This document shows, one piece after another, positions 25,107-28,390 of a DNA stretch of 39,226 nt. The translations under genes and the position numbers were made by a program. How positions within the stretch are numbered: position 1 is the stretch's first letter; each line of letters starts with the position of its first letter. Where the stretch lies: positions 1 to 39,226 of the forward strand of contig JAGNWK010000019.1 in the NCBI GenBank assembly GCA_017985985.1, read 5' to 3'. The notes under the pieces were generated by a model. The model saw only the letters and a program-made list of their open reading frames with translations, was not told the DNA's origin and searched no databases. The stretch is from Oligoflexales bacterium. Its GTDB lineage: Bacteria > Bdellovibrionota_B > Oligoflexia > Oligoflexales > Bog-1112.

Positions 25107-25227
25107 GGAACCATCCCACAAGTCGTATAGCAAGGCATTGGGGAGCAATCAGTGCAGTTTACTGGATGGTAAATGAGCAGCGCAGCGACGAAAATAACGC
25201 AGCTACACGACTTGTGGGATGGTTCCT
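25107..25227. mobile_element. MITE-like element family 1, copy A (~121 bp, 21-bp terminal inverted repeats)
   Basis: Terminal inverted repeats aggaaccatcccacaagtcgt ... acgacttgtgggatggttcct with an ~80 bp core. Its terminal ..cctag supplies the TAG stop of the adjacent CDS 25226..25726. Confidence 0.7.
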
Positions 25228-25726
25228 AGGCCGTCGACAGCATGCTTTTCAAAAGGAGCCGCTGATAGGTAGAGAGGGTCATAAGCCCTTCGTCCTCAAA
25301 AAGACTGGAGTGCACGCGAGGTCTGGTTAAAACCTGCTGTGGTTCGTAAATGTTTACAAGATCAAATGGCTGCCCCTTTCGCATAAAGACATCCTGATCC
25401 ACAATTTTTTCACTCTGCGAGACTAGCCAACCATGAGGCGATTGTTCAAAAAGCCAGCCGAGCGTATTTCTTGGCCTAAGATAAAAATACCTTCTCGAAA
25501 ACGCAAGCAGTCCAGACTCGTAAAAAAGAGGAGCTGAAGAGTGCTCTCGAGGAAGCTCTTTGAACTGAGTGTAGATGGAGTGTTTCAGCTTCAAAAAAAT
25601 CTTATCTCGCAGCTCTTCATCTATCAGCAGATTGTAGCGAACAGATAATGCCGACGACAAGGGATCACCTGATTTTGAATCTGGCCGCTTCTTCTCAATT
25701 ATAAAATGCCTAAGTCGCTCCAACAT
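25226..25726 (-). CDS. Hypothetical protein (166 aa)
   Basis: ORF with no recognisable domain. Its 3' end abuts or overlaps MITE copy A, so its C-terminus may have been altered by the insertion. Confidence 0.4.
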   Translation of the reverse strand: MLERLRHFIIEKKRPDSKSGDPLSSALSVRYNLLIDEELRDKIFLKLKHSIYTQFKELPREHSSAPLFYESGLLAFSRRYFYLRPRNTLGWLFEQSPHGWLVSQSEKIVDQDVFMRKGQPFDLVNIYEPQQVLTRPRVHSSLFEDEGLMTLSTYQRLLLKSMLSTA

Positions 25727-25792
25727 AAGAATCTTTCATCTTGACAGAGTCTTCGGTTATCCATTAACAATGTCTTCACTTGGGGCACATCA

Positions 25793-25869
25793 TGCGGGAG
25801 TAGCTCAGTTGGCTAGAGCGTCGCGTTGCCATCGCGAAGGTCGAGGGTTCGAGTCCCTTTTCCCGCTCC
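25793..25869 (+). tRNA. tRNA-Gly (anticodon GCC)
   Basis: Cloverleaf: acceptor GCGGGAG/ttCCCGC; D-arm GCTC-AGTTGGCTA-GAGC; anticodon stem TCGCG / loop TTGCCAT / CGCGA; T-arm GAGGG-TTCGAGT-CCCTT; discriminator T; CCA encoded. Near-identical to E. coli glyV. Confidence 0.9.
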
Positions 25870-26034
25870 AAATTTTTCAAATACACATCCCCACATAAGG
25901 TGCCATCTCATAAGTCGTCGTCAGTCAGAGCATCGAGAGCATACAGATGCAAGCAGATTGACCACTTATAAGATAGCGCCTTATTCTATTATACCACTGT
26001 CGAATCCTCGTTCGGCAAGATCAGGTAAAAACCA

Positions 26035-26718
26035 ATGACCAGTCTCTTAAAATTAGCGAGTTTTCCCATCGGAAATCTCGCCTGCAATTGCTCCGTTATT
26101 TATTCCAGTCAGACTCGAGAAGCGATCGCCATCGACCCCGGCAATGACGCCGACTCCTTTTTAAAAAAAATAAAAACCCTCGATGTTCAGGTTAAATATC
26201 TCCTACATACCCACGCCCACTTCGATCACATCGGCCACTCTGACATTGTGCGAACAAAGATTGGCGCCCCACTACACCTCCACAAGGATGATCTTTTCTT
26301 GTACAGAGCCCTCCGTGAGCAGGGCCTGTTCTTTGGGCAGCAGGTGGGAGAACCCGGAGAAGTCGATCACTACATAGAAGACGAAGAAGAATATAAGATT
26401 CAAGTCCAAAATCTAGAGATCAAAGATCAAGGACTTCAGACCATCCTCAAAACCATACACACCCCCGGACATACCCCCGGCTCTTGCAGCTTCTATACAG
26501 AACTTTTGGAAGACGGCCCCATGCTCTTCACAGGGGACACTCTTTTTTCTGGGACGATAGGCCGCACAGACCTACCGGGTGGAGACTTCCACCAGCTGAT
26601 ACATTCCATCCAAACCAGAATTCTTAAACTCCCTGAAGAAACCACCTGCATACCAGGCCATGGTGCCCAAACAACACTCTCCAATGAAAAGCGATACAAT
26701 CCTTTCCTCAAAAAATAG
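26035..26718 (+). CDS. MBL-fold hydrolase (glyoxalase II / GloB-like)
   Basis: HTHAHFDHIGH (HxHxDH) and the downstream motifs ..TPGHTPGS.. and ..FTGDTLF.. are typical of hydroxyacylglutathione-hydrolase-like MBL proteins. Confidence 0.75.
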   Translation: MTSLLKLASFPIGNLACNCSVIYSSQTREAIAIDPGNDADSFLKKIKTLDVQVKYLLHTHAHFDHIGHSDIVRTKIGAPLHLHKDDLFLYRALREQGLFFGQQVGEPGEVDHYIEDEEEYKIQVQNLEIKDQGLQTILKTIHTPGHTPGSCSFYTELLEDGPMLFTGDTLFSGTIGRTDLPGGDFHQLIHSIQTRILKLPEETTCIPGHGAQTTLSNEKRYNPFLKK

Positions 26719-26793
26719 TCCATCTCTACTGATGCTATAATAGCAACGAGTCATCACTTGAAAAATTCCAAGTTATAGCAAAAGAAGCAAAGA

Positions 26794-27081
26794 ATGGAAA
26801 ACAGCGTAGAAGGAAAAGAAAAAGGCAATTGTCGATGCCCACATCATAAAATGAAGGGTATTTTCATCGCTCTGGCAGGGTTAGCTTATTTGCTGGGGAA
26901 TCTCGAAATCATTTCCATGCACATGGCTCATAATATTTGGCCTATACTGATCATCCTTTTCGGATTGATGAAGTCCTTCGGTAACAATATTTGCAAATGC
27001 TGCACACCTAGCTCAGCTGGAGGAAAGTGCTGTGACTCCAATAACTGCTCCTGCTCCTGCAAGTGTTGCAAGAAAAGCTAA
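26794..27081 (+). CDS. Small Cys-rich membrane-associated protein (95 aa)
   Basis: N-terminal NCRCPHH, one hydrophobic helix, and a C-terminal tail with 11 Cys in 33 aa (CKCCTPSSAGGKCCDSNNCSCSCKCCKKS). Metallothionein-like or peptide-like, no firm family. Confidence 0.4.
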   Translation: MENSVEGKEKGNCRCPHHKMKGIFIALAGLAYLLGNLEIISMHMAHNIWPILIILFGLMKSFGNNICKCCTPSSAGGKCCDSNNCSCSCKCCKKS

Positions 27082-27096
27082 CATGTAGTTCCCCCC

Positions 27097-27122
27097 TGGG
27101 GAACCAGCTACGCAGTATCCCC
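27097..27122. repeat. REP-like palindromic element (family 4)
   Basis: ggggaaccagctacgcagtatcccc lies immediately after the stop of 26794..27081. Confidence 0.5.
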
Positions 27123-27287
27123 GACGCTGACTTTGCATCAGCCCTGCCATATAACCAATAGAATCTACCACTTACTGACTTTTTTAAAATCTATTTGATT
27201 TTATTACCAACATTAACTATAATATAACTATTAAAATGATTTTAAATAATATTCCATTGGAATCTTGTTTTTTGAAAAGGACAGATT

Positions 27288-28253
27288 ATGAGAAGAGCTC
27301 TACACGGAAGAATTCTTTATCTTTGTCTACTTAGCTTTTTTTCACAGTCAAGCTTGCTAGCTCAAAATGAAATTCAATCCAATACCACTTCCTTTGTTTC
27401 AGCCAATTCAAATCAAAGCGGGAGTGTTACTTGTGATCAGTTCCAAAACACAGCTTCTCCGCAACTCAAAACTGTAACTGGCTGGAGCCAGCCCCTGTTA
27501 GTCACAGCTTCCGGCATTGCTGCTGGTCTTGGCATCGCTGCTGCCACAGCTGCTGTGCTTTCGACTATGCCTCTAGGGACCTTGGGGCTTGGCGTTATTG
27601 CAGCAGGAACTCTGACTGGTGCAGGCGTGGGTGCGCTCACTGGACATATACTCAACATGAGCCCAAGCAAAGCTGCGTTCCTGGGTGCAGGTGGTGGTTT
27701 GCTTGGTTCTACGCTTGGCGTCTATCTTTTGTCTTATTCACCAGCAATAGCTGCCCTAAGCTCTGCAGCTGCTACGGATACCGATCTGCAACGCGCAATG
27801 GCGTTGTCTGCACAATCTATGCAAAAGGAAGTGATGAACTATGCCACGTTTGCAGAAACCCATGGTTTGATCAGTGCCAAAGATGATGGCCTTTGTTTCT
27901 TCCATGCTTTGCGTGCTCAAGGACTTAATGTCGCTCAGCGAGCTATTGCTGTTAGTGAAGAAGTCAATCTGTATATGCACGATAATATCAATCTGATCAT
28001 AGACTTTATATCCTCTGAAGGAGACGCTCTAGCTGCAGCAAAAGAATATGTCGCAAAACGCATAGCCAACCCTAAAGAGTGGGCTGACTACATTGCCGTA
28101 GCCATGACAGCCCAGTATTATGGTGTCGCTATCCAAGTGCATAGTTATGACGCTTCTGGCAACTTTCAGTACTCAACGACATATAATGAGGGGGTGGGTC
28201 ATACCACTTACACTGTCATCTGTCTGGCAAACAAACACTTTTTCTTTGAATAG
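27288..28253 (+). CDS. OTU-like cysteine protease domain protein with an N-terminal signal peptide and Gly/Ala-rich TM region
   Basis: KDDGLCFFHALRAQG matches the OTU catalytic-Cys motif (D-G-x-C-[FL]-F-x-A). The C-terminal ..LANKHFFFE fits the OTU His motif. A hydrophobic G/A-rich segment precedes it (aa ~70-160). Confidence 0.55.
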   Translation: MRRALHGRILYLCLLSFFSQSSLLAQNEIQSNTTSFVSANSNQSGSVTCDQFQNTASPQLKTVTGWSQPLLVTASGIAAGLGIAAATAAVLSTMPLGTLGLGVIAAGTLTGAGVGALTGHILNMSPSKAAFLGAGGGLLGSTLGVYLLSYSPAIAALSSAAATDTDLQRAMALSAQSMQKEVMNYATFAETHGLISAKDDGLCFFHALRAQGLNVAQRAIAVSEEVNLYMHDNINLIIDFISSEGDALAAAKEYVAKRIANPKEWADYIAVAMTAQYYGVAIQVHSYDASGNFQYSTTYNEGVGHTTYTVICLANKHFFFE

Positions 28254-28268
28254 TGTTTCTCGGAGTCT

Positions 28269-28390
28269 AGGAACCATCCCACAAGTCGTATAGCAAGGCA
28301 TTGAGAATGCGATCAGCGCAGTTTACTTGCTGGTAAATGAGCAGCGCAGCGATGAAATAGCGCAGCTAGACGACTTGTGGGATGGTTCCT
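28269..28390. mobile_element. MITE-like element family 1, copy B (same orientation as copy A)
   Basis: Same 21-bp terminal inverted repeats, with a core ~85% identical to copy A. It sits between the convergent stops of the OTU-like and LRR genes. Confidence 0.7.

Follow-up and report, generated by a model that had tools for sequence, protein, structure and literature searches.

Two closely similar repeats in a 39,226-nt contig of an Oligoflexales genome (the whole of this stretch is referred to below as the window) very probably belong to a family of non-autonomous DNA transposons: bacterial MITEs of about 120 bp with 25-nt inverted repeats, similar in kind to the Correia and RUP elements and presumably mobilised in trans by an IS630-type transposase. 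The family is designated family 1, and its two intact copies A and B. In all, the 39 kb contain five recognisably related loci, two intact and three decayed or partial, which show graded divergence and occupy unrelated intergenic positions. An earlier sequence-only reading had favoured a MITE-like family over a local duplication, and it is supported by A/B identity that stops at TA, by unrelated flanks, and by the three diverged members at unrelated intergenic sites. Coordinates are given in Table 1.

Table 1. Positions of family-1 loci and of associated features in the window.
Feature	Position	Strand	Remarks
Family-1 copy A (candidate MITE)	25105..25228	+	core 25107-25226 (120 nt)
Copy A, TA flanks	25105-06 and 25227-28		
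Copy A, terminal inverted repeats	25107-25131 and 25202-25226		
Family-1 copy B (candidate MITE)	28268..28391	+	core 28270-28389
Copy B, TA flanks	28268-69 and 28390-91		
Copy B, terminal inverted repeats	28270-28294 and 28365-28389		
TAG stop codon of ORF166	25226..25228	-	copy A terminal C + flanking TA
Enclosed segment	25229..28267	.	context, outside element
ORF166 (enclosed segment)	25226..25726	-	
tRNA-Gly(GCC) (enclosed segment)	25794-25870		only Rfam gathering-score match in window
MBL-fold hydrolase (enclosed segment)	26035..26718		
Small LiaF-TM/Cys-rich protein (enclosed segment)	26794..27081		
OTU-domain protein (enclosed segment)	27288..28253		
Decayed family-1 copy	2370..2458	+	score 70 vs random maximum 44; ~30 nt shorter internally
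Solo right-end remnant, family 1	3365..3402	-	~33/40 nt match; 20-nt repeat 17/20
Family-1 right end	32880..32915	+	33/36 nt match consensus; own TA at 32914-15

Two intact copies

The coordinates bear out the earlier placement of both copies, in the same orientation and about 3.1 kb apart (3163 bp from start to start). Each comprises 120 nt plus its TA flanks, or ~124 nt, with terminal inverted repeats of 25 nt; counting the flanking TA, and one further base in copy B, the arms are 27–28 nt long and 96% complementary, and they contain the 21 nt of perfect repeat that had been described as 21-bp terminal inverted repeats. Of the 127 columns in the alignment of copies A and B, 115 (91%) are identical, and the longest identical stretch is 36 nt. 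Each of the terminal 28-column blocks matches at 27 of 28 columns and the core at 61 of 71 (86%, close to the ~85% first estimated); this better conservation of the ends relative to the core was counted in favour of the MITE interpretation. With up to three mismatches allowed, a 20-nt portion of the repeat has five occurrences in the window, whereas 100 shuffles gave an expectation of 0.00.

The similarity between A and B breaks off exactly at the TA, beyond which their flanks are unrelated, and this points to transposition rather than segmental duplication. Copy B sits between the convergent stop codons of the OTU gene (28251-53) and an LRR gene (28399-401); the LRR protein had no record in the collection looked up. 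Only two reading frames are open across copy A, and copy B has a stop codon in every frame. We took as MITE-sized those elements shorter than about 300–500 bp and without a transposase ORF, which describes family 1; it likewise shows two further marks of a MITE, terminal inverted repeats and an occurrence at several unrelated loci between which the identity goes no further than the edges of the element.

We consider A and B likely to represent two independent and fairly old insertions at gene 3' ends, and their 9% divergence argues against recent activity.

TA flanks and target sites

The dinucleotide TA adjoins all six recognisable termini (left and right of A, left and right of B, 3365 and 32913), and past the TA no longer duplication is seen around copies A and B. 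Each copy would thus have inserted at a TA that was duplicated in the process, as is the behaviour of IS630/Tc1-mariner elements, following recognition of the family-1 repeats by a DDE transposase presumably encoded elsewhere in the genome. Because TA...TA is itself palindromic, the dinucleotides could also belong to the inverted repeats as their terminal base pairs, and only an empty site would distinguish the two; we infer that they are target-site duplications. The reconstructed targets are tTAg for copy A and cTAg for copy B, both of which fit the NTAN/CTAG insertion preference of IS630 elements, and in the latter case the insertion would have been into cTAg between two convergent genes. 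The empty sites predicted for A and B are CATCT-TA-GGCCG and GAGTC-TA-GTGAAG. A 4-bp CTAG duplication of the IS5 type was ruled out, since copy A has TTAG on its left and CTAG on its right.

Diverged members elsewhere in the contig

Local alignment scores were judged against random windows, for which the 95th percentile is 31 and the maximum 44. The decayed copy at 2370-2458, between the dcuB stop codon and the start of an ORF at 2489, has both ends recognisable, with ATCTCA/TGAGAT in its two arms instead of ATCCCA/TGGGAT. The remnant at 3365-3402 (blastn E 0.004) is the weakest of the three additional members, its score of 44 equalling the random-window maximum; it is preceded by TA at 3363-64 and sits in a 54-nt spacer between two minus-strand genes. 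Neither of these two loci had been noticed in the sequence-only reading.

A degraded right end had been placed at 32897-32920; the locus is real (blastn E 2e-4, local score 59), but its true span is 32880-32915, ending 3 nt from the stop codon of the ORF at 32919..33650. A further possible remnant at ~5125-5145 reduces to a 10-mer match (E 3.4) with a score of 27, which is at chance level.

On its left side the 32880-32915 end is joined to an element of a second family, family X (32769-32879), so as to form a chimeric element (32769-32915) in which a shared GATAA marks the junction between the left inverted repeat and core of family X and the right inverted repeat of family 1. The ends of the two families have a loose AACC-N5-7-AAGT pattern in common. 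We think it very doubtful that one transposase cross-mobilises families 1 and X and that the hybrids are transposition-competent, as would be copies A and B together with the 3.1 kb that they enclose, including tRNA-Gly and the OTU protease. At least three other families of small palindromic repeats are carried by this genome, and short-read unitigs break at them.

The stop codon of ORF166

The TAG stop codon of ORF166 is the complement of 25226-25228, formed by the last C of copy A and the adjoining TA, and the overlap that had been described between this stop codon and the terminus of the element is therefore correct. It had also been suggested that the insertion remodelled the C-terminus of the protein, and this does not hold: when the element is taken out together with one TA, the sequence reads ...ACG GCC TAA, with TAA back in the place of the present stop codon, and the ORF166 protein thus stays at 166 aa. 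Under a model with no target duplication it would be only one residue longer, at 167 aa. The insertion of copy A would accordingly have been into a TAA stop codon, at its TA, changing it to TAG and leaving the protein unaffected. A search of 5.8 billion protein clusters for ORF166 homologues with which to compare the C-terminus returned only the protein itself.

Hairpin structure and possible host selection

Copies A and B each fold into one long hairpin (z ~ -9 to -10), with a predicted RNA dG of -60 to -67 kcal/mol. An unlikely alternative to a transposon is that these are palindromes selected by the host—REP/BIME-like or terminator-like hairpins, or a small RNA gene—that stabilise or end transcripts at the 3' ends of genes. 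The great stability of the fold (z ~ -10) is what would be expected of such a structure, every copy is intergenic with three adjoining stop codons, and the 2370 copy has a matching change in both arms (ATCTCA/TGAGAT). Several observations count against it, however. Neither strand of copy A or of copy B has a T-tract following the stem, which makes an intrinsic-terminator role unlikely, and a scan for intrinsic terminators reported nothing at either copy. A and B have different internal folds and only the terminal stem in common; in the old 2370 copy the fold is wholly lost, the sequence folding no better than when shuffled (z +0.27), and a 22-nt internal deletion, present in copy A in one Logan sample, is tolerated. 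This loss of the hairpin and the deletion in copy A together suggest neutral decay, which may also account for the state of the older copies at 2370, 3365 and 32880. Rfam covariance models gave no match for the family-1 element, and REP units are much shorter and are not known to form TA-delimited units of 120 nt. A side effect on mRNA 3' ends would be compatible with a MITE and does not replace that interpretation.

The segment between copies A and B

MITE-bounded composite units exist, for example the MITE-flanked integrons of Acinetobacter, in which, as here, two MITEs of the same family surround a few kb of cargo. Copies A and B could by analogy be the ends of a composite transposon, with the 3.1-kb cassette having arrived as a unit and being still excisable or mobile. 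The intact inverted repeats of both copies would allow the outer ends to work together, and the cassette contains an ORF without a homologue among 5.8 billion protein clusters as well as an effector-like OTU protein. We nonetheless regard a composite of this kind as improbable in the extreme. GC content inside the segment is 0.45-0.46, the same as in the flanks; A and B, differing by 9%, are not a recent pair; the outer TA flanks are uninformative; and the cassette was found in this context only, in three further samples. The Acinetobacter units differ in just these respects, in that the family-1 copies are 9% diverged, their cargo has a tRNA and a chromosome-like composition, and it was seen in no second context, with joint movement nowhere indicated.

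The geometry of the pair had been read as permitting recombinational excision or inversion of the enclosed segment. Deletion is possible in principle between any direct repeats; here, the longest identical stretch is only 36 nt, and a 3.1-kb deletion would take out tRNA-Gly(GCC), a loss that would probably be costly to the host and thus also speaks against an excisable cassette. Three of the four junctions (A left, A right and B left) were recovered independently in Logan assemblies of four samples, every Logan contig extending to a junction has the element in place, and no sign of excision of the enclosed 3.1 kb was seen in contigs reaching these junctions. A Logan contig of 3163 nt, a length that coincides with the spacing of the copies, was considered as an excised circle and rejected: it is a unitig of the assembly graph that stops at shared repeat k-mers, and its length is that of 3185 nt less the 22 nt deleted.

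Since only two copies are intact and a single contig of a metagenome-assembled genome contains them both, one might suspect local or segmental duplication, or else an artefact of assembly. This is hardly credible and is for the most part refuted by the boundaries and by the agreement among samples, with identity stopping exactly at TA between unrelated flanks, three more diverged members elsewhere in the contig, and three of four junctions reproduced in the four-sample Logan assemblies.

Searches for a partner element and for copies elsewhere

A non-autonomous MITE would depend on a transposase in trans, and none of the contig's 35 large ORFs has a Pfam transposase domain; no autonomous element with matching ends (GGAACCATCCCACAAGTCGT) was seen in the 39 kb and a further ~3 kb of this genome. 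The latter DNA, lying beyond the window, was obtained from Logan look-ups with the window proteins and contained no new family-1 copy. The exact 20-nt repeat had no match in GTDB (185,579 species genomes) or in JGI metagenomes, and a gapped 12+12 pattern of the repeat core had none in GTDB, IMG/VR or JGI metagenomes. Copy B gave no blastn match to PLSDB plasmids. A concatenated six-frame translation of the element, intended to catch genes running into other element copies, found nothing at E values up to 10 among 5.8 billion protein clusters. Homologues of HtpX were used to look for an empty site, and none was found; the closest of them share 72-77% identity and lie on contigs (~46 kb) that are not syntenic and contain no family member. 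Family 1 may well be present at high copy number in the remaining genome.

Comparison with Correia and RUP elements

Correia elements are 107 or 155 bp in size, with an inverted repeat of 24 bp, TA at the termini and a duplication of the target (PMC2229807). Family 1 is similar in layout to the Correia/NEMIS elements of Neisseria, with a length of ~120 bp compared with 107-155 bp and terminal inverted repeats of 25 bp compared with 24-26 bp; both have TA at the two termini, interpreted as a target duplication, both are non-coding with a transcript that is one long hairpin, and both lie mainly between genes, frequently near their ends, and vary in length through internal deletions. No sequence similarity is evident, and as the likeness is one of layout only, family 1 is not classed as a member of that group. 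The Neisseria elements differ further in belonging to a host of another phylum, where there are hundreds of copies, and in their known processing by RNase III; by eye, neither an IHF site nor an outward promoter could be made out convincingly in family 1.

RUP elements, of 107 bp, have a TA target and ends like those of IS630-Spn1 (PMC2229807), and they share with family 1 the small size, inverted ends and TA insertion, mobilisation in trans by an IS630-family transposase having been proposed for them (PMC2229807). ISY100 is of the same Tc1/mariner/IS630 family (PMC2170065). The contiguous inverted repeat of RUP is only 9 bp, however, and the link between RUP and its IS comes from identity of end sequence with IS630-Spn1, whereas no partner IS is visible for family 1, and its IS630 assignment is consequently drawn solely from the TA flanks.

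Implications

Family 1 is a new family, although of a kind familiar since the Correia and RUP elements were described, that of MITEs which target TA and lie at the ends of genes. The insertions are probably neutral, and the elements ordinary genome litter of small practical value that raises no new mechanistic question. For assembly, the family-1 element explains why short-read assemblies break at these points, and for annotation, the TAG stop codon of ORF166 is to be read as a chimera of element and target TA that terminates an unaltered protein. If one transposase did cross-mobilise families 1 and X, MITE-driven shuffling of host-interaction genes would follow for an uncultured Oligoflexales lineage. 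As a matter of census, a lineage-restricted MITE family is added for the poorly studied Oligoflexales, in a genome that is apparently rich in small palindromic repeats.

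Two intact copies of a new repeat family

Copies A and B, two intact ~124-nt elements of repeat family 1, share a single layout (see table). With the flanking TA included, and one additional base in copy B, their inverted arms measure 27-28 nt and show 96% complementarity. The two copies align with 115 of 127 columns matching (27/28 in each terminal 28-column block, 61/71 in the core), and they lie in the same orientation, 3163 bp apart. Each folds as a single long hairpin, with an RNA dG of −60 to −67 kcal/mol (z −9 to −10) and a z of −9.3 as DNA. The 20-nt repeat, with ≤3 mismatches allowed, is present five times in the window, compared with 0.00 expected. 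The coordinates, inverted repeats, core identity, orientation and spacing were rechecked, and the sequence-only reading had described all of them accurately.

The identity between A and B ends exactly at the TA, and the 30 nt on each side of the two copies are unrelated; since the flanks differ right up to the TA, this is insertion of a discrete element, not duplication. Three more family-1 members are present in the contig, all at unrelated intergenic sites, so the elements were rightly read as a MITE family, and the inverted repeats are not confined within the contig to the two loci, as a local duplication was expected to be. When scored against random 136-nt windows (95th percentile 31, maximum 44), the member at 3365-3402 only equals the highest random score and is thus the weakest of the three; a remnant previously suggested at ~5125-5145 is a 10-mer match at chance level (score 27). 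This MITE family is new, and its kind has long been known.

Coordinates of repeats and genes in the contig
Feature	Position	Strand or orientation	Remarks
Family 1, copy A	25105-25228		TA-GGAACC...GGTTCC-TA
Family 1, copy B	28268-28391		layout as in copy A
Family 1, member	2370-2458		both ends recognisable; ~30 nt lost internally; local score 70
Family 1, solo right end	3365-3402	opposite	~33/40 nt match; score 44; blastn E 0.004
Family 1, right end	32880-32915		33/36 nt match consensus; score 59; joined to family X at GATAA (chimeric X/F1 element)
Family X	16120-16247		
Family X, left end and core	32769-32879		follows family-2 fragment
Family X	Logan contig L014, 1-65		
Family 2	4575-4695; 37841-38047		
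Family 2, fragment	32720-32769		first in spacer 32720-32915
Family 3	10873-10925; 27097-27122; 30396-30499; 31918-31988; 33676-33706; 36198-36312		
ORF166	25226..25726	minus	
tRNA-Gly(GCC)	25794-25870		
MBL-fold hydrolase	26035-26718		beside tRNA-Gly
OTU-domain protease	27288-28253		N-terminal two-thirds rich in Ala, Gly, Leu
LRR protein	28399-30384		661 aa
Collagen triple-helix repeat protein	11788-13362		524 aa
ORF	13398..14612	minus	404 aa; no Pfam match
GGTGAT tandem array	14296-14424	plus	perfect; within ORF 13398..14612
ORF	30505..31941		478 aa; no Pfam match

Target site and the ORF166 stop codon

TA abuts all six readable termini (both ends of A, both ends of B, 3363-64 and 32914-15), and no longer duplication was found beyond the TA at A and B. 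The reconstructed targets are cat-cTTAg-gcc (tTAg) for A and gagt-cTAg-tga (cTAg) for B. The TA would be a target duplication, although TA...TA is itself palindromic. IS630/Tc1-mariner transposases have as their hallmark the duplication of a 2-bp TA at NTAN/CTAG (PMC2229807), and Correia/NEMIS and RUP elements have the layout seen here, with ~120 bp, ~25-bp inverted repeats, TA termini and a long hairpin (PMC2229807, Table 1). On the strength of these flanks and this layout we propose that an IS630-type transposase, with its gene elsewhere, mobilises family 1 in trans. Neither an empty site nor a partner IS was found in the window, the Logan contigs or the nearest relatives, and a Pfam scan identified no transposase domain among the 35 large ORFs of the contig.

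The TAG stop of ORF166, complement(25226-25228), consists of the last C of copy A plus TA. Removing the element and one TA in silico gives ...TCG ACG GCC TAA, which leaves the stop position unchanged and the product at 166 aa; if no target duplication is assumed, the product is 167 aa and ends in ...STAR*. Copy A would thus have used the TA within a TAA stop as its target, the sole change being TAA to TAG, and the remodelled C-terminus suggested earlier is not borne out by this reconstruction. ORF166 encodes exactly the NCBI protein 'MAG: hypothetical protein KA436_04595 [Oligoflexales bacterium]', is 100% conserved across three Logan samples, and has no detected Pfam domain; comparison with an orthologue is impossible because 5.8 billion protein clusters hold no homologue besides ORF166 itself.

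Stability of the enclosed segment

Between A and B lie ORF166, tRNA-Gly(GCC), the MBL-fold hydrolase, a 95-aa LiaF-TM/Cys-rich protein and the OTU-domain protein. Deletion between direct repeats is possible in principle, but the proposal that the pair permits excision of the enclosed 3.1 kb, or acts as a composite transposon, is not supported: the copies are 9% diverged, their longest identical stretches are only 36, 23 and 22 nt, the GC content of the segment equals that of its flanks, three of the four element junctions recur in Logan assemblies of four samples, and deletion would take out tRNA-Gly(GCC). A 3163-nt Logan contig gives no evidence of a circle, being a unitig of the de Bruijn graph that ends on both sides in shared repeat k-mers.

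Sequence decay

The family-1 pattern is one of neutral decay, not of a conserved RNA, because A and B have different internal folds, the 2370 copy folds no better than shuffled sequence (z +0.27), and copy A has lost 22 nt internally in sample SRR21875704 (Logan contig L001, 3089-3100, corresponding to about 25182-25203 of the window). Contigs of SRR25018404 and SRR25018406 break off at the point where the two copy A variants converge, and we infer that both are present in these populations as a polymorphism. The two arms of the 2370 copy share one matched change (ATCTCA/TGAGAT), for which a subfamily is a more likely explanation than selection on structure.

Other repeats and gene content

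Family X is a second MITE-like family of ~128 nt, with inverted repeats CCAACCTGTCTAAGTAT / ATACTTAGACAGCTTGG, a palindromic core CATTGCGAG...CGCAATGACG and a DNA fold z of −5.5; Logan contigs place another right end ~3 kb left of the window. Spacer 32720-32915 holds three repeat families nested in one intergenic region. Family 2 contains GTCACCCCGAGCGAAGTCGAGGGGTATCG..., is palindromic, includes a tandem pair (37878 and 37975, 95% identity), and is where Logan contigs break. Family 3 is built around the hairpin GGGGAAACTGCGCAGCTGGTTCCCC; at the two ends of the 478-aa ORF stands an inverted pair of 71 nt (30402-30472 and 31918-31988) with 87% complementarity.

The window is one entire MAG contig and is ordinary chromosome, with Pfam matches to DcuB, ferrochelatase, NfeD/SPFH, proline dehydrogenase, an RlmL-type methyltransferase, class II tRNA synthetase, DbpA helicase, FolB, HtpX, a multihaem cytochrome and eukaryote-like proteins. 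The latter, with OTU, LRR and collagen repeats, give a hint that the organism behind this Oligoflexales MAG lives in association with a host. For the MBL-fold hydrolase, a weak match to PF23023 (Anti-Pycsar_Apyc1) is among the precomputed Pfam hits, and our own scan gives Lactamase_B as the only significant match.

Distribution and position relative to genes

The family-1 repeat was absent from 185,579 GTDB species genomes, JGI metagenomes, IMG/VR and PLSDB, and from ~46 kb of the HtpX region of the nearest relatives (HtpX 72-77% identical); the family seems to be confined to this lineage. Copy A lies 3′ of ORF166 and upstream of HtpX, at 135 nt from the annotated start (299-aa form); it also precedes a promoter-like site at 25065-25038. 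The OTU and LRR genes converge with their stops separated by a 145-nt gap, most of which is copy B; without this copy ~23 nt would remain. A further stop codon lies 3 nt from the end of the 32880 remnant. No T-tract follows either hairpin on either strand and a scan reported no terminator-like site there, so a classical intrinsic-terminator role is unlikely. As Correia elements do, the hairpins of A and B may affect mRNA 3′-end stability or RNase III processing.
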